DNA of 64,000 nucleotides from Escherichia phage KIT06. A program made the translations under genes and the position numbers. Positions 3,227 through 25,592 of this stretch are shown here, piece by piece. How positions within the stretch are numbered: position 1 is the first letter of the stretch; the number at the start of each line of letters is the position of its first letter. Location of the stretch: the sequence record OQ349392.1. One strand, given 5' to 3'. The notes beneath the pieces were generated by a model. It was not told where the DNA came from. It did not search any database and saw only the letters and a list, made by a program, of their open reading frames with translations.

Positions 3227-3766
3227 ATGAGAACATTTTTAACTGGTCCTTATCTATCCCTGATGAATGCTTTTACACACCATTCTGATGCTAGAGTAGA
3301 AGAAATTTGTAAAAACGATTATATCCCACCATTTGAAGACTTACTCAAACAGTATTGTACACTTCGTTTAGATGGTGGCAGACAATCTGGTAAATCAACT
3401 GCAGTAACTAATTTTGCCGCTAATTGGTTATATGATGGTGGAACAGTTATTGTTCTTTCTAATACTTCAGCTTATGCTAAAATTTCTGCGGGCCACATTA
3501 AAAAAGAATTTTCTCGTTATTCTAGCGATGATATTCGATTCCGCTTATTTACCGATTCTGTCCGTAGTTTTATCGGTAATAAAGGAAGCAAGTTCAGAGG
3601 TTTATTGCTTTCGCGAATTTTGTATATAATTGATGATCCTGTTAAAGCTCCTGATATGGATAAAATTTACGATATTCATATTGAAACTGTGCACCACTGT
3701 TGCAATAGTAAATGCTGCATTGGTGGTATTACTCGTCCACAGTTTTTCATAATCGGAATGCAATGA
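3227..3766 (+). CDS. hypothetical P-loop NTPase
   Basis: Walker A GGRQSGKST and Walker B-like ILYIIDD; start 3227 chosen for GAGAG SD (ORF track start 3179). Confidence 0.45.
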   Translation: MRTFLTGPYLSLMNAFTHHSDARVEEICKNDYIPPFEDLLKQYCTLRLDGGRQSGKSTAVTNFAANWLYDGGTVIVLSNTSAYAKISAGHIKKEFSRYSSDDIRFRLFTDSVRSFIGNKGSKFRGLLLSRILYIIDDPVKAPDMDKIYDIHIETVHHCCNSKCCIGGITRPQFFIIGMQ

Positions 3767-4092
3767 TGACAGACACGCAACTTTTCGAATATCTTTATTT
3801 TTCGCCAAAAACTGTTAAAAATAAATTGGTGAATCATTTTGAAATTTTGGCAAATAACAACGTCTTGAGCGAATTTTATCCTAAGCAATACAAACTACAA
3901 AAAGGTGTATTCAAAGGATGCAGAGTTTTGTGCACTGCTCCTAATGTAAGATTAATGAATAAAATTCCATATTTTACCATGGAATTTATTGATGGGCCTT
4001 TTAAAGGACTAATCACGCAGAGTTTAATGGCATATGATTCTGAGCCATTTTTAATTAAAGAGCAATCTTGGATAAATTTATTTTCTAATTGA
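3763..4092 (+). CDS. hypothetical protein
   Basis: ATGA overlap with upstream stop; first in-frame ATG of ORF 3712..4092. Confidence 0.45.
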
Positions 4093-4100
4093 GAGGTTAT

Positions 4101-4463
4101 ATGAAAGCATATCAAATTCTTGAAGGCACGCATAAAGGTACTATTTATTTTGAAGACGGTATTCAAGCACGAATTATTGTCTCTAAAACTTTTAAAGAGG
4201 ACTCTTTTGTAGACCCAGAAATTTTCTATGGTTTGCATGCCCGTGAAATTGAAATTGAAACACAACCTACAGTTAAAATTGAAGGTGGTCAACACCTGAA
4301 CGTTAACGTTCTGCGTCGTGAAACTCTGGAAGATGCAGTTAAGCATCCGGAAAAATATCCGCAGCTGACCATCCGTGTATCCGGTTATGCAGTTCGCTTT
4401 AACTCTCTGACTCCGGAACAGCAGCGCGACGTTATCGCTCGTACCTTTACTGAGAGTCTGTAA
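4101..4463 (+). CDS. autonomous glycyl-radical cofactor (GrcA/YfiD-like; T4 Y06I-like)
   Basis: C-terminal 60 aa [59 protein letters not shown] matches E. coli GrcA glycine-radical motif RVSGYAV; SD GAGAGG before ATG 4101. Confidence 0.8.
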
Positions 4464-4684
4464 TGGCAAAGATAATTATTGAAGGTTCTGAAGATGTGTT
4501 AAATGCTTTCGCCGAATGGTTTAGTAATTCAGGCGAACAGCAATTTAATGAAGCGTGGAACATGGGTGATATTAGTGGAATTTATCCTACGACAGAAATT
4601 TCTGTTCAGGGATATGGCATTCATGAGCCTATTCGTTTAATTGAATATGATTTGGGTACTGGTGAGGAAGTAAAATATGATTGA
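4463..4684 (+). CDS. hypothetical protein
   Basis: 73-aa ORF, ATG overlapping upstream stop (TAATG). Confidence 0.45.
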   Translation: MAKIIIEGSEDVLNAFAEWFSNSGEQQFNEAWNMGDISGIYPTTEISVQGYGIHEPIRLIEYDLGTGEEVKYD

Positions 4685-4943
4685 AGATATTAAGGGTTAT
4701 AAGCCACATACTGAAGAGAAAATCGGTAAAGTGAATGCTATCAAAGATGCTGAAGTTCGTTTAGGACTTATCTTTGATGCTTTATATGATGAATTCTGGG
4801 AAGCACTAGATAATTGTGAAGACTGTGAATTCGCGAAGAATTATGCTGAAAGCCTTGATCAGTTAACTATTGCTAAAACTAAACTCAAAGAAGCCAGTAT
4901 GTGGGCTTGTCGTGCTGTGTTCCAACCAGAGGAAAAATATTAA
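4677..4943 (+). CDS. hypothetical protein
   Basis: 88-aa acidic ORF in vs.x region; short overlap with neighbours. Confidence 0.45.
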
Positions 4944-5221
4944 TGGCTCAATTAAGCGCAGGGTTTGGTTATGAGTATTATACTGCCCCTCGTCGTGTAT
5001 CTGTTGCTCCTAAGAAAATTCAAAGTCTTGATGATTTCCAGGAAGTAATTCGTAACGCTTTCCAGGACTATGCGCGTTATCTTAAAGAAGATTCACAGGA
5101 CTGTCTCGAAGAAGATGAAATTGCTTACTATGAGCAGCGTCTTGAACAGCTTAAAAACTTACATGAGGTTCGTGCAGAAGTTTCAAAGTCTATGAATAAA
5201 TTGATTAGATTTAAAGAATAA
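4943..5221 (+). CDS. hypothetical protein
   Basis: 92 aa from first ATG (ORF track 4901 is a non-ATG start); TAATG overlap. Confidence 0.45.
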
Positions 5222-5223
5222 CT

Positions 5224-5253
5224 GTTTACTTTTCCTCTTGACTGTGGTATAAT
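5224..5253 (+). promoter_or_regulatory. T4 early promoter upstream of regB
   Basis: GTTTAC 5224-5229, 18-nt spacer, TGGTATAAT with TATAAT at 5248-5253; SD GAGGAG then ATG 5281. Confidence 0.6.
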
Positions 5254-5280
5254 TTTTCTATCAGTTAAGAGGAGAATAAC

Positions 5281-5742
5281 ATGACTATCAACACAGAAGT
5301 TTTTATCCGTCGAAATAAGCTCCGTCGTCACTTTGAGTCGGAGTTTCGTCAAATTAACAATGAGATTCGTGAGGCATCAAAAGCAGCAGGGGTCTCATCG
5401 TTTCATCTAAAATATTCTCAGCATCTTCTTGATCGTGCAATTCAACGGGAGATTGATGAGACATATGTTTTTGAATTATTCCATAAAATAAAAGACCATG
5501 TTTTAGAAGTTAATGAATTCCTGAATATGCCTCCACGCCCTGACATTGACGAGGATTTTATTGATGGGATTGAATATCGTCCTGGGCGTTTAGAAATCAC
5601 AGATGGAAATCTTTGGCTTGGATTTACAGTTTGTAAACCTAATGCGAAGTTCAAAGACCCGTCGCTTCAATGCAGGATGGCAATTATCAACAGTCGTCGT
5701 TTACCGGGAAAGGCTTCTAAGGCAGTAATTAAAACTCAATGA
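5281..5742 (+). CDS. regB: RegB site-specific endoribonuclease
   Basis: 153 aa, same length as T4 RegB; sequence recognised (MTINTEVFIRRNKLRR...); own early promoter. Confidence 0.9.
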   Translation: MTINTEVFIRRNKLRRHFESEFRQINNEIREASKAAGVSSFHLKYSQHLLDRAIQREIDETYVFELFHKIKDHVLEVNEFLNMPPRPDIDEDFIDGIEYRPGRLEITDGNLWLGFTVCKPNAKFKDPSLQCRMAIINSRRLPGKASKAVIKTQ

Positions 5743-7480: not shown

Positions 7481-8062
7481 ATGGCGAGTTTAATTTTTAC
7501 TTATGCAGCAATGAATGCTGGAAAATCTGCTTCTCTTTTGACTGCTGCGCATAATTATAAAGAACGCGGAATGGGTGTATTAGTTCTTAAACCTGCTATT
7601 GATACTCGCGATTCTGTCTGTGAAGTCGTTTCTCGCATTGGAATTAAGCAGGAAGCGAATATTATTACGGATGATATGGATATTTTTGAGTTCTATAAAT
7701 GGGCTGAAGCACAAAAAGATATTCATTGCGTATTTGTAGATGAAGCTCAGTTTTTAAAAACTGAACAGGTGCATCAATTAAGCCGAATTGTCGATACATA
7801 CAATGTTCCTGTTATGGCTTATGGTCTAAGGACTGATTTCGCTGGAAAATTATTTGAAGGTTCTAAAGAACTTTTGGCGATTGCAGATAAACTTATTGAA
7901 CTAAAGGCAGTTTGTCATTGCGGTAAAAAAGCGATTATGACGGCTCGATTAATGGAAGATGGAACACCAGTTAAAGAAGGTAATCAAATCTGTATTGGTG
8001 ATGAAATTTATGTTTCTTTGTGCAGAAAACATTGGAATGAATTAACTAAAAAGCTCGGTTAG
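7481..8062 (+). CDS. tk: thymidine kinase
   Basis: 193 aa, same as T4 Tk; P-loop AAMNAGKS, zinc-ribbon CHCGKKA...C; SD AAGGTG. Confidence 0.95.
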   Translation: MASLIFTYAAMNAGKSASLLTAAHNYKERGMGVLVLKPAIDTRDSVCEVVSRIGIKQEANIITDDMDIFEFYKWAEAQKDIHCVFVDEAQFLKTEQVHQLSRIVDTYNVPVMAYGLRTDFAGKLFEGSKELLAIADKLIELKAVCHCGKKAIMTARLMEDGTPVKEGNQICIGDEIYVSLCRKHWNELTKKLG

Positions 8063-22014: not shown

Positions 22015-22488
22015 ATGTTATTGACTGGCAAATTATACAAAGAAGAAAAACAAAAATTTTATGATGCACAAAACGGTAAATGCTTAATTTGCCAACGAGA
22101 ACTAAATCCTGATGTTCAAGCTAATCACCTTGACCATGACCATGAATTAAATGGACCAAAAGCAGGAAAGGTACGTGGGTTGCTATGTAATCTCTGTAAT
22201 GCTGCAGAAGGTCAAATGAAGCATAAATTCAATCGTTCTGGCTTAAAGGGACAAGGTGTTGATTATCTTGAATGGCTAGAAAATTTACTTACTTATTTAA
22301 AATCCGATTACACCCAAAATAATATTCACCCTAACTTCGTTGGAGATAAATCAAAGGAATTTTCTCGTTTAGGAAAAGAGGAAATGATGGCTGAGATGCT
22401 TCAAAGAGGATTTGAATATAATGAATCTGACACTAAAACACAATTAATAGCTTCATTTAAGAAGCAGCTTAGAAAGAGTTTAAAATGA
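22015..22488 (+). CDS. 49: endonuclease VII (Holliday junction resolvase, gp49)
   Basis: 157 aa, same as T4 gp49; MLLTGKLYKEEKQKFYDAQNGKCLICQRELNP... with Cys4 zinc site and HDH motif. Confidence 0.92.
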   Translation: MLLTGKLYKEEKQKFYDAQNGKCLICQRELNPDVQANHLDHDHELNGPKAGKVRGLLCNLCNAAEGQMKHKFNRSGLKGQGVDYLEWLENLLTYLKSDYTQNNIHPNFVGDKSKEFSRLGKEEMMAEMLQRGFEYNESDTKTQLIASFKKQLRKSLK

Positions 22489-24302
22489 CAATTGAAAAAG
22501 AAATTGAAGGATTGATTCATAAAACTAATAAAGACCTTTTAAACGAGAATGCTAATAAAGATTCTCGTGTTTTTCCAACTCAACGGGACCTTATGGCTGG
22601 TATTGTGTCTAAACACATTGCCAAAAATATGGTCCCGTCTTTTATTATGAAAGCGCATGAAAGCGGAATTATTCATTTCCATGATATTGATTATTCCCCT
22701 GCTCTTCCATTTACTAATTGCTGTTTAGTAGATTTAAAAGGAATGCTTGAGAACGGATTTAAGCTCGGTAATGCACAGATTGAAACTCCTAAATCAATCG
22801 GTGTTGCTACTGCAATTATGGCACAAATTACTGCACAGGTTGCTTCCCATCAATATGGTGGAACGACTTTTGCGAATGTAGATAAAGTACTTTCTCCTTA
22901 TGTTAAACGCACCTATGCAAAACATATTGAGGACGCAGAAAAATGGCAAATCGCTGATGCGTTGAATTATGCCCAATCTAAAACAGAAAAAGATGTATAC
23001 GATGCATTCCAAGCTTATGAATACGAAGTAAATACTCTCTTTAGTTCAAACGGACAAACGCCTTTTGTAACAATTACATTTGGTACGGGAACTGACTGGA
23101 CTGAACGAATGATTCAGAAAGCAATTCTGAAAAATCGTATTAAAGGCCTTGGTCGCGACGGGATAACTCCTATTTTCCCTAAACTTGTTATGTTCGTTGA
23201 AGAAGGTGTTAATCTTTATAAAGACGATCCGAACTATGATATTAAGCAGCTTGCTCTAGAATGTGCAAGTAAAAGAATGTATCCTGACATCATTTCGGCT
23301 AAGAACAATAAAGCTATCACCGGTTCATCTATTCCTGTTTCTCCAATGGGTTGTCGTAGTTTCTTGGGTGTATGGAAAGATTCGACTGGTAATGAAATTC
23401 TTGATGGACGTAATAATCTTGGTGTTGTAACACTGAATCTTCCTCGCATTGCACTAGATTCTTATATTGGAACACAGTTCAATGAACAGAAATTTGCCGA
23501 ATTGTTCAATGAGAGAATGGATTTATGTTTTGAAGCATTGATGTGTAGAATTAGTTCATTAAAAGGAGTTAAAGCTACTGTTGCTCCTATTCTTTACCAA
23601 GAAGGTGCATTCGGGGTTCGTCTTAAACCTGATGACGATATAATTGAGTTATTTAAAAACGGTAGAAGTTCAGTGTCTTTGGGATACATTGGTATTCACG
23701 AATTGAATATTCTTGTCGGTCGTGATATTGGACAAGAAATTTTAACTAAAATGAATGCTCATCTTAAGCAGTGGACTGAAAGAACTGGTTTTGCTTTTAG
23801 TTTGTATTCGACACCTGCTGAAAACCTGTGCTATCGCTTCTGTAAACTTGATACCGAAAAATATGGAAGTGTAAAAGATGTTACCGATAAAGGCTGGTAC
23901 ACTAACAGTTTCCACGTTTCAGTAGAAGAAAATATCACTCCGTTTGAAAAGATTTCTCGTGAAGCACCATATCATTTCATTGCGACAGGTGGTCACATTT
24001 CTTATGTTGAACTTCCTGATATGAAAAATAACCTAAAAGGTCTTGAGGCTGTATGGGATTATGCTGCGCAACATTTAGATTATTTTGGCGTTAACATGCC
24101 AGTAGATAAATGTTTTACGTGTGGAAGTACCCATGAAATGACTCCTACTGAAAACGGATTTGTTTGTTCTATTTGTGGAGAAACTGATCCTAAAAAGATG
24201 AACACAATAAGAAGAACATGCGGATATCTTGGAACTCCTAGCGTTGTTCCATGGAATTTAGGTAAAATGAAAGAAATGGTAAAACGAGTAAAACATGCAT
24301 AG
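22485..24302 (+). CDS. nrdD: anaerobic ribonucleoside-triphosphate reductase NrdD (intronless)
   Basis: Continuous 605-aa ORF; C-terminal zinc ribbon CFTCGS...CSICGE and glycyl-radical region RRTCGYLG; no intron interruption unlike T4. Confidence 0.95.
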   Translation: MTIEKEIEGLIHKTNKDLLNENANKDSRVFPTQRDLMAGIVSKHIAKNMVPSFIMKAHESGIIHFHDIDYSPALPFTNCCLVDLKGMLENGFKLGNAQIETPKSIGVATAIMAQITAQVASHQYGGTTFANVDKVLSPYVKRTYAKHIEDAEKWQIADALNYAQSKTEKDVYDAFQAYEYEVNTLFSSNGQTPFVTITFGTGTDWTERMIQKAILKNRIKGLGRDGITPIFPKLVMFVEEGVNLYKDDPNYDIKQLALECASKRMYPDIISAKNNKAITGSSIPVSPMGCRSFLGVWKDSTGNEILDGRNNLGVVTLNLPRIALDSYIGTQFNEQKFAELFNERMDLCFEALMCRISSLKGVKATVAPILYQEGAFGVRLKPDDDIIELFKNGRSSVSLGYIGIHELNILVGRDIGQEILTKMNAHLKQWTERTGFAFSLYSTPAENLCYRFCKLDTEKYGSVKDVTDKGWYTNSFHVSVEENITPFEKISREAPYHFIATGGHISYVELPDMKNNLKGLEAVWDYAAQHLDYFGVNMPVDKCFTCGSTHEMTPTENGFVCSICGETDPKKMNTIRRTCGYLGTPSVVPWNLGKMKEMVKRVKHA

Positions 24303-25125
24303 GTATTATATAATTTATAAAATAACAAATATAATTAATTCAAAGGAATATATCGGTGCGCATAGCACCGATAACATAAATGACGGTTATATGGGGTCAG
24401 GAACATTGATTCGTGCCGCTTTATTAAAATATGGTAGAAAAAATTTTAATAAAGAAATTTTACATGTTTTTGATAATGAAAAACAAATGTATGATAAAGA
24501 AGCTGAACTCGTAACCGAAGAGTATTGTCTAAAAGAAAATACATATAATATTAAACCTGGTGGAAAAGGTGGAACTGCCTATGAACAGACACTTGAACAT
24601 CGCCGCAAAAATAGTTTAGCAAATAAAGGTAAAAAGAGAACAGAAGAAACTAAAATAGCTATTTCACGTGCTTTAAAGAAATATAAACGTACGCCAGAGC
24701 ATCAAGCAAATTTAAATAAAGCCGTAAGCATAGCTATGAAGCGAAAAGATGTTAGAAGTAAATTAGCTGGAGAGCGGTCTGAGAAAGATAAATTATCTAT
24801 ATCAAACGGTGTTAAAAAATATTACAATTCTTTGAGTGAAGAAGAACGCGAACTTCATCGCAAGCGAATTATTGAAGGTAAAAAGAATTCTCCCATGTCA
24901 TTGGAATCTAGACAAAAGCTTTCAAAAGCTTTAAAAGGACTTCAAGTTGGTTCAAAAAATCCAATGTATGGAAAAATTTCTCCAACTAGCAAAACCGTTT
25001 CAGTTGACGGTATTAAATATGATTCAATTAAAAAGTGCTCAAATGCCATAAAAGTTTCTAGACATCTTATACTAAAACGCTGTAATTCTACTGATGAAGC
25101 TTGGAAAAATTGGATATTATTATGA
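24295..25125 (+). CDS. GIY-YIG homing endonuclease (Seg/Mob-like), free-standing between nrdD and nrdG
   Basis: 276 aa; GIY-YIG motifs YIIYKITN...EYIGAHS...GSG...NTYNIKPGG; repeated NUMOD3-like DNA-binding repeats (KNSLANKGKKRTEETK, SRQKLSKALKG). Confidence 0.85.
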   Translation: MHRYYIIYKITNIINSKEYIGAHSTDNINDGYMGSGTLIRAALLKYGRKNFNKEILHVFDNEKQMYDKEAELVTEEYCLKENTYNIKPGGKGGTAYEQTLEHRRKNSLANKGKKRTEETKIAISRALKKYKRTPEHQANLNKAVSIAMKRKDVRSKLAGERSEKDKLSISNGVKKYYNSLSEEERELHRKRIIEGKKNSPMSLESRQKLSKALKGLQVGSKNPMYGKISPTSKTVSVDGIKYDSIKKCSNAIKVSRHLILKRCNSTDEAWKNWILL

Positions 25126-25592
25126 ATTATGACAGAATATACCCGTGTTGCTTTGTTAACGGTCCTGGGTGCCGAACTGTTCTTTTCGTTACAGGTTGTT
25201 TGCATAAATGTGAAGGGTGTTATAATAAATCAACATGGAATGCTAGAAATGGCGTTCCATTCACTGGTGAAACACTAGAACAATTAATTAAATGTTTGAA
25301 TAATGATTATATAGAAGGATTAACTATAACTGGAGGAGACCCTCTCTATCCAGATAACCGAGATGTTGTTCATTGCATTGTTCAAACAGTAAAAAATCTT
25401 TATCCGAATAAAAGCATTTGGTTGTGGACAGGATATAAGTTTGAAGATATTAAACAACTAGAAATGCTTAAATATGTTGATGTTATTATTGATGGGAAGT
25501 ATGAGAAAAATCTTCCGACCAAAAAGCTGTGGCGAGGTTCAGATAATCAGCGACTTTGGTCAAATACCGATGGGGTGTGGAAACATGATTAA
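25122..25592 (+). CDS. nrdG: anaerobic ribonucleotide reductase activating protein NrdG
   Basis: 156 aa from ATG 25122; radical-SAM-like cysteine motifs CCFVNGPGC and CLHKCEGC. Confidence 0.9.
   Translation: MNYDRIYPCCFVNGPGCRTVLFVTGCLHKCEGCYNKSTWNARNGVPFTGETLEQLIKCLNNDYIEGLTITGGDPLYPDNRDVVHCIVQTVKNLYPNKSIWLWTGYKFEDIKQLEMLKYVDVIIDGKYEKNLPTKKLWRGSDNQRLWSNTDGVWKHD

Follow-up and report, generated by a model that had tools for sequence, protein, structure and literature searches.

A host-identical tract inside the vs.6 gene of Escherichia phage KIT06, probably acquired by replacement from Escherichia coli grcA

The 64,000-nucleotide stretch of Escherichia phage KIT06 analyzed here (sequence record OQ349392.1; hereafter "the window") is a segment of a Tequatrovirus (T4-like) genome, with the lysozyme gene e at 1561-2055 and tk at 7481-8062. 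Its gene order vs.8-vs.7-vs.6-vs.5-vs.4-vs.3-regB is that of T4 (NC_000866). The subject of this report is one of these genes, the open reading frame (ORF) at 4101-4463, and in particular a short tract within it that reproduces part of a host gene, grcA (Table 1). The encoded protein is identical to T4 Vs.6, or Y06I (NP_049730), at 118 of 120 amino acids (98.3%), and the 1.2 kb of DNA around the gene is 95-98% identical to that of many Tequatroviruses; by synteny and by high identity, the ORF is the orthologue of T4 vs.6 in the Tevenvirinae. Hundreds of phage records carry the annotation GrcA or vs.6 (autonomous glycyl radical cofactor) on this gene, and GrcA homologues are present in 1,588 phage records. 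A promoter scan around vs.6 returned promoter-like sites at a frequency not above shuffled expectation, and a terminator scan of the same region returned few terminator-like hairpins and no useful signal.

Table 1. Features of the vs.6 locus and of the ribonucleotide reductase genes in the window
Feature	Position	Strand	Description and basis
vs.6 (Y06I) coding sequence	4101..4463	+	120 amino acids plus stop; phage autonomous glycyl-radical cofactor, GrcA homologue
Phage-lineage 5' half	4101..4278	+	Codons 1-59/60; old diverged GrcA N-terminal region in phage codons
Putative host-derived conversion tract	4279..4453	+	Identical over 175 nt to the 3' half of E. coli grcA; residues 61-117, glycyl-radical domain
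Gly95 codon GGT	4383..4385	+	Predicted glycyl-radical site in RVSGYAV; from sequence and alignment to GrcA and PFL
Phage-type 3' end, GAG AGT CTG TAA	4452..4463	+	3' junction of the tract; GAGAG is a Shine-Dalgarno-like element (inferred role)
nrdD	22485..24302	+	Class III ribonucleotide reductase; Pfam NRDD, E = 5e-171, and Gly_radical
nrdG	25101..25592	+	Radical-SAM activase of NrdD; Pfam Fer4_12, Radical_SAM

Vs.6, at 120 residues, has the form expected of this family, a stand-alone protein of about 120-130 amino acids that ends in an RVSGYAV glycyl-radical domain. Pfam model PF01228 (Gly_radical) covers residues 60-101 (E = 2e-18), and in the PDB the protein matches E. coli GrcA itself (6OWR, E = 5e-42). 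Gly95 aligns with Gly102 of E. coli GrcA and with Gly734 of PflB, the pyruvate formate-lyase (PFL) of the host (E. coli numbering from PMC8683613), and the domain is identical to the PflB C-terminus (PDB 1H16, residues 697-759) at 49 of 63 positions (78%). According to the passages of PMC8683613 and PMC13450708 that report the work of Wagner et al. (2001), the PFL-activating enzyme places a glycyl radical on both T4 Y06I and E. coli GrcA (YfiD), and both bind PFL that has been cleaved by oxygen at Gly734 and restore its activity; the same passages describe YfiD as having a disordered N-terminus and a PFL-like C-terminal domain. By analogy, the host activase PflA would install a glycyl radical on Gly95 of Vs.6, which would then dock on host PFL stripped of its C-terminal radical domain by oxygen and restore its activity. 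Production of acetyl-CoA, ATP and formate would thereby continue in the infected microaerobic cell.

When the vs.6 ORF is searched with blastn against 5,426 complete E. coli genomes, grcA is matched in all of them, and solely by positions 4279-4463 (183 of 185 nucleotides identical, E = 7e-86); 5' of 4279 there is no alignment to grcA in any of these genomes. Taken alone, the tract matches 175 out of 175 nucleotides in about half of the genomes and has one mismatch in most of the others (K-12 derivatives, for example, have CGC in place of CGT at one Arg codon). A codon-by-codon alignment finds zero mismatches to E. coli grcA in the interior of the tract, and residues 61-120 of Vs.6 are identical to GrcA residues 68-127 at all 60 positions. 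Among the sampled genomes, the second-best host for the tract is Citrobacter (91.8%). An earlier note on this DNA, made by a model from the sequence alone, had picked out a host-like codon segment at about 4270-4460 that matched E. coli GrcA, described it as relatively recent and host-derived, and suggested BLAST against grcA, analysis of GC and codon usage, and comparison with T4 Y06I as checks. All three checks sustain that part of the note: nucleotide identity is high rather than low, the limits it gave lie within 10 bases of the real junctions, the composition of the tract sets it apart from phage genes (below), and the T4 orthologue carries the same E. coli-identical 3' half.

The composition of the gene changes at the same place. 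GC content is 0.50 in the tract, compared with 0.33 in the 5' half (the N-half of the protein) and 0.345 in the window as a whole; at third codon positions (GC3) the tract reaches 0.42 and the 5' half 0.18. Against a background of 12,277 windows of 57 codons from genes of the 64-kb window (GC3 0.24 +/- 0.07), the tract has z = 2.7 and falls in the top 1.1%, about half of that tail coming from a spurious antisense ORF. Codon choice tells the same story. All five Leu codons of the tract are CTG, a codon used for 8% of Leu in phage genes (p = 3.6e-6), and Pro (3/3 CCG), Asn (3/3 AAC) and Ile (2/2 ATC) are equally uniform. The N-half uses codons typical of the phage (Ile 9/9 ATT), as the earlier note had also said. 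Synonymous near-identity to a host gene, host-like codons and phage ancestry on both flanks, the marks of a recent host-to-phage transfer, are thus all found together in the tract. (The antisense ORF, 197 amino acids at 3876-4469 on the minus strand, overlaps vs.7 and vs.6, and its frame reaches a GC3 of 0.62. This high value simply mirrors the coding of the sense strand. The ORF is almost certainly spurious, yet it distorts naive gene calling and codon statistics; we took it as spurious and dropped it from the codon background.)

Both junctions of the tract are visible. At the 5' junction the phage-type sequence ...GTT AAA AT gives way to T GAA GGT GGT at the start of the conserved EGGQH domain; upstream of this point, phage and E. 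coli grcA share about 56% identity. At the other end, the last three codons read GAG AGT CTG in the phage and GAA AGC CTG in E. coli, which accounts for the sole two mismatches of 4279-4463. GAG AGT is common to Mosigvirus, Pseudotevenvirus and Slopekvirus, in whose interiors the sequence is unlike E. coli. The GAGAG that it forms stands 6 nt ahead of the vs.5 start codon (ATG at 4463), which overlaps the end of vs.6. In the record for phage Matisse this GAG is marked as the ribosome-binding site for the gene that follows, and GAGAG may well act as the Shine-Dalgarno element for vs.5. An insert of host ancestry with phage ancestry on both of its flanks points to a gene-conversion patch and not to a terminal fusion.

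The sequence upstream of the 5' junction is not foreign to GrcA. An hhalign comparison of 11 phage N-halves with 12 host GrcA N-halves gives a probability of 96.5% and E = 7e-10 over 62 columns, collinear and at 26% identity, and phmmer aligns Vs.6 residues 22-120 to GrcA residues 28-127. (A Pfam scan of Vs.6 residues 1-60 alone gives no match.) The N-half is conserved across T4-like, T5-like and jumbo phages, and a dN/dS ratio (nonsynonymous to synonymous divergence) of about 0.15-0.2 between Tequatrovirus and Mosigvirus indicates purifying selection. Judged from these alignments, vs.6 is an old full-length phage homologue of grcA, its N-half homologous to and collinear with that of host GrcA. 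The proposal in the earlier note that a host segment had been fused to an unrelated phage N-terminus does not hold up: the N-half is a diverged GrcA N-half, and the last three codons are of phage type.

Synonymous divergence (dS) identifies the donor. Over the tract, dS from E. coli is 0.00-0.02 for both the window and T4, and 0 between the window and T4. Values between E. coli and other hosts are 0.05 for cryptic Escherichia, 0.38 for Citrobacter, and 0.7-1.1 for Klebsiella, Enterobacter and Salmonella. On these distances the donor of the tract is E. coli itself. The tract of Salmonella enterica strain s1 (L017) is farther from E. coli (dS 1.1) than are those of Klebsiella and Enterobacter (0.7-0.76), the reverse of the species relationships; this order may be noise from a short region.

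The tract is younger than its flanks. Between the window and T4, synonymous differences number 0 of 44 in the tract and 47 of 265 in flanking genes (p = 2e-4). Set against Mosigvirus, the window shows 4 of 44 in the tract, compared with 63 of 104 in vs.7 plus vs.5 (p ~1e-9) and about 10 of 37 in the N-half of vs.6 itself (p = 0.04). Flanking-gene dS runs at 0.16-0.40 for comparisons within the genus, rising to 1.1-1.4 when genera are compared. An unbiased count from BLAST identity bands agrees: 252 GenBank phage records reach at least 99% identity over the tract, compared with 20 over the 5' half, which has the same length, and none over the neighboring vs.5 segment.

The early region around the gene has a mosaic of its own. 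Across window positions 3227-5742, dS to two Mosigviruses (L086, L004) is 0.5 in vs.8, 1.1 in vs.7, 0.3-0.45 in the vs.6 N-half and 1.4 in vs.5, and in the same comparison vs.4, vs.3 and regB exceed 2 or are saturated. Such variation from gene to gene indicates a phage-phage recombination mosaic in the early region that is independent of the host tract. The two Mosigviruses also differ from each other in vs.4 (L086 2077-2322 and L004 1555-1821) at dS 0.89, while neighboring genes stand at 0.02-0.10, the apparent signature of a local gene replacement.

The same domain was compared with 162 sampled host alleles in other phage lineages. Its best identity to any of them is 80-87% in Karamvirus, Pseudotevenvirus and Slopekvirus, and 72-81% in Krischvirus, T5-like, Aeromonas and jumbo phages. 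Among the 162 alleles no recent host donor was found for these genera, and their longest exact runs are no better than those of host-host pairs. The domain they carry looks to be a native, A/T-rich phage version. With homology extending through the N-half, and with an old diverged 3' half in related genera, the event in the E. coli phages is read as homologous replacement of part of a grcA homologue that the phage already had.

A second phage genus repeats the pattern with the allele of another host. The tract of Jiaodavirus JD18, which infects Klebsiella, is identical at 161 of 165 positions to a metagenomic Klebsiella allele (L112) and at 159 of 165 to K. pneumoniae strain 176; in a Jiaodavirus-like locus from IMG/VR (L216), 163-164 of 165 positions match strain 176. 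GC3 in Jiaodavirus is 0.61 in the tract and 0.27 in the N-half. The 5' junction is that of Tequatrovirus, the 3' end is again phage-type (ACT TTC ACA GAG GCA CTA), and Jiaodaviruses encode the Klebsiella-type LLDAVEH in place of the LEDAVKH of E. coli and its phages. A Klebsiella-allele tract set between the same junctions implies that the same segment was replaced independently from a different host genus.

IMG/VR loci L219 and L260-L270, considered as further host-like phage tracts, were rejected as bacterial grcA or pflB genes in viral-labelled contigs; they contain Yersinia-like full-length grcA and pflB C-termini, in prophage-flanking host DNA or misclassified contigs. Two PLSDB "plasmids" (L189, CP125156.1, 5.37 Mb, K. 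pneumoniae; L190, LR134122.1, 568 kb, K. aerogenes) carry the chromosomal ung-grcA-srmB arrangement and appear to be mislabelled chromosomes or chromosome fragments. In Aeromonas phage 31 (L093, T4-like) and Salmonella phage Spc35 (L094, T5-like), the GrcA homologue lies inside or beside a tRNA gene cluster.

The mechanism we propose is that the glycyl-radical segment of the old phage grcA homologue was overwritten through homologous recombination (gene conversion) with chromosomal grcA, the pre-existing phage homologue serving as the pairing surface for the exchange. The patch would end on the 5' side where phage-host homology collapses; on the 3' side the stop codon would limit it, as probably would selection to keep the ribosome-binding site of vs.5. 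A perfect 175-bp match, once present, would make it easier to exchange sequence with the host again. T4-type phages break host DNA into fragments and recombine very actively in a homology-dependent manner, and T4 genetics has classically made use of marker rescue from short pieces of homologous DNA.

The explanation taken whole, a cofactor function for Vs.6 together with host overwriting of the tract that is most likely recurrent, is one we hold with considerable confidence. We favor, with distinctly more reserve, its stronger form, in which lytic T4-like phages repeatedly overwrite a tract of 165-175 nt with whichever allele their current host carries (E. coli for Tequatrovirus and Mosigvirus, the K. 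pneumoniae complex for Jiaodavirus), and the diversity of phage tracts mirrors host alleles and not the flanks. Less probable, though a serious competitor, is a single host acquisition per lineage (once from E. coli, once from Klebsiella), followed by phage-phage spread and ordinary mutation with no ongoing host conversion. The Jiaodavirus tracts speak against that alternative by matching differing K. pneumoniae-complex alleles: L216, JD18 and KP179 differ at CGC/CGT, ACC/ACT, TCC/TCT and TCT/TCC, the same sites and bases that separate two alleles of the complex, and L216 and JD18 differ at 5 positions, 3 of which coincide, with the same bases, with the 6 host-polymorphic sites (roughly p = 0.01, our own estimate). 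Synonymous divergence among Jiaodaviruses is higher in the tract (10/43) than in the N-half (3/39; p = 0.07). In the E. coli phages, the host CGT/CGC polymorphism recurs in unrelated phages (the K-12-type CGC is also in Kha5h, L191 and Mosigvirus tp6), and the GTA of EC121 is also present in a cryptic Escherichia allele. Nor would a single acquisition lead one to expect the 3' end-point of E. coli identity to move outward stepwise, from RB33 to T2 to the window to T4, or the tract to lack any synonymous change between the window and T4 amid flanks so much more diverged. Because phage variants share host-allele polymorphisms in both groups, conversion is most likely recurrent.

A number of observations weigh against the explanation we prefer, some against recurrence and some against the explanation more broadly. 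In the E. coli phages, 2 of about 17 phage variants overlap the 5 known host variants (roughly p = 0.1, our own estimate), which is not significant alone, and in these phages recurrent conversion is not cleanly separated from a single acquisition with phage-phage spread. Tequatrovirus and Mosigvirus share the 3' GAG AGT, as descent from one acquisition would have it, and vs.6 as a whole, N-half included, is less diverged between these two genera than vs.7 and vs.5 are, which fits phage-phage gene exchange. Mosigviruses moreover share derived A/T-ward changes in the tract (CAT, CCA) that resemble in-phage amelioration, and their within-genus divergence is raised in the tract (8/44, compared with 21/322 in flanks; p = 0.014); this suggests that the Mosigvirus tract has already spent some time evolving within that phage lineage. 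Among six Tequatroviruses picked to include tract variants, the proportion of synonymous differences (pS) in the tract is 0.049, barely under the 0.062 of the N-half. The Klebsiella allele L112, from a metagenome locus, is assigned to no species. As to function, the role of Vs.6 in KIT06 is drawn from the T4 literature by way of 98% identity, and the protein scores 154.6 bits against the NCBIfam GrcA model TIGR04365, under its equivalog cut-off of 170. (T5-like and Krischvirus homologues score lower still, at 121 and 127 bits.) Vs.6 falls below the cut-off because its N-half is divergent.

A different target for the cofactor, the phage's own NrdD, was put forward in the earlier note, and a reading of Vs.6 as a spare part for that enzyme is very unlikely. 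The attraction is in part one of gene neighborhood: nrdD and nrdG lie in the same window, and the 354-kb jumbo Yersinia phage fHe-Yen9-04 (an Eneladusvirus; L091 1-1157) has its GrcA homologue one gene 3' of the class III reductase large subunit, closer to nrdD than in T4-like phages. A 2006 comparative paper also speculated on a role in nucleotide metabolism (PMC1524935). Yet BLASTP of Vs.6 against the window NrdD gives E = 5.9, with no alignment over the radical motif, whereas the domain resembles the PflB C-terminus closely and is 100% identical to host GrcA; the published biochemistry, according to PMC8683613, is PFL reconstitution. As judged from these comparisons, NrdD is not plausible as a direct target of Vs.6. 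Formate supply could provide an indirect link, by a different mechanism: any benefit of Vs.6 to the phage NrdD would plausibly be indirect, PFL being the cell's source of formate. We take T4 NrdD to belong to the formate-type class III reductases. In enzymes of this type formate is the reductant, according to the passage of PMC11226230 that cites Mulliez 1995.

Between nrdD of the window, which is uninterrupted, and nrdG, and overlapping both, lies an ORF of 276 amino acids (24295-25125, plus strand) with a NUMOD3 motif and a weak match to the I-TevI DNA-binding domain. It looks like a free-standing gene of homing-endonuclease type inserted between the two.

The remaining alternatives concern the identity itself. 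Nucleotide identity might be selected directly, for example if the phage transcript mimicked the 3' part of host grcA mRNA and so shared, or titrated away, an RNase site or a regulator that acts post-transcriptionally in the host. This has no direct support (titles of papers state that grcA mRNA is processed by MazF) and we consider it highly improbable: diverged sequences serve other phage genera well, the copies in Mosigvirus are drifting toward A/T, and recombination accounts for the junction pattern without an extra assumption. Still more improbable is that no recent transfer took place, and that an ancient grcA owes its identity to extreme purifying selection and convergent codon optimization. 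The domain protein is indeed invariant across Tequatrovirus and Mosigvirus, and nearly so in many phages, but all synonymous sites are identical, including codons that are not optimal for E. coli (AAG, CAT, GTA, TTT, TAT), and the phage's own codon preference is strongly different; Pseudotevenvirus leB encodes the same 60 residues at dS 1.4 to E. coli, which excludes convergent codon optimization. Transfer in the reverse direction, with E. coli obtaining the 3' half of grcA from a T4-like phage, has next to nothing in its favor beyond the fact that identity by itself carries no direction, since the codon usage of the tract is that of the host, E. coli grcA diverges by degrees from that of other Enterobacteriaceae, the gene sits in a conserved ung-grcA context in both E. 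coli and Klebsiella, and phage genera that lack the tract carry a different, A/T-rich version.

The vs.6 gene and its biochemical role are already known, and no new kind of system is described here. A literature search for the nucleotide identity of the tract or for the mosaic structure of the gene found no report; the main T4 genome review lay outside that search, and an earlier description is possible. Host-allele tracking in two phage genera may be the sole new part. What the locus offers is an unusually clean case of sub-genic exchange between host and lytic phage, with both junctions visible, the donor identifiable to species, and a repeat in a second phage genus with its own host allele. 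If conversion is truly recurrent, the tract would give a natural, trackable instance of host-to-phage homologous recombination in lytic phages, a measurable natural rate of chromosomal marker transfer into T4-like phages, and a simple experimental system; it could also mark the recent host of a phage and so aid host assignment for T4-like phages. The persistence of the tract suggests either that fit with host PFL and its activase matters enough, or that the host domain is tolerated enough, for it to remain in the phage.

Among known systems the closest is T4 Vs.6 (Y06I) itself, which occupies the same place in the denV-regB early region, with vs.7 and vs.5 as its neighbors. It differs by two amino acids (T54P and R73H in the T4 reference) and in the extent of E. 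coli identity, which is one codon shorter at the 3' end in KIT06 (GAG; GAA in T4). The adjacent vs.5 also differs: the T4 reference copy (L085 1863-2039) encodes 58 amino acids with a different C-terminus, while the window (4463-4684) and most relatives encode 73-74, and the T4 reference copy is probably frameshifted. E. coli GrcA (YfiD; 6OWR, TIGR04365) is likewise a stand-alone protein of about 14 kDa, with the identical C-terminal 60 residues including RVSGYAV and a collinear homologous N-half. The N-half of Vs.6, however, is only about 26% identical to it, is 7 residues shorter, and lacks the invariant host motif NSFWLLD; vs.6 is expressed from a lytic phage early region, whereas host grcA adjoins ung. 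The spare part takes the place of one structural element of PflB, its C-terminal domain, but there the domain sits in a 759-residue enzyme, and Vs.6 has neither the catalytic barrel nor the Cys-Cys site.

Cyanophage psbA is a host-derived auxiliary metabolic gene of lytic phages for which exchange with host alleles has been described. Like psbA-type genes, vs.6 is a host metabolic gene in a lytic phage with exchange of gene segments between host and phage. Unlike them, it shows an exchange that is sub-genic, confined to 165-175 nt inside a much older phage homologue; in two phage genera the tract corresponds to the allele found in the current host genus, and its junctions appear to be set on one side by loss of homology and on the other by the ribosome-binding site that serves the next gene.

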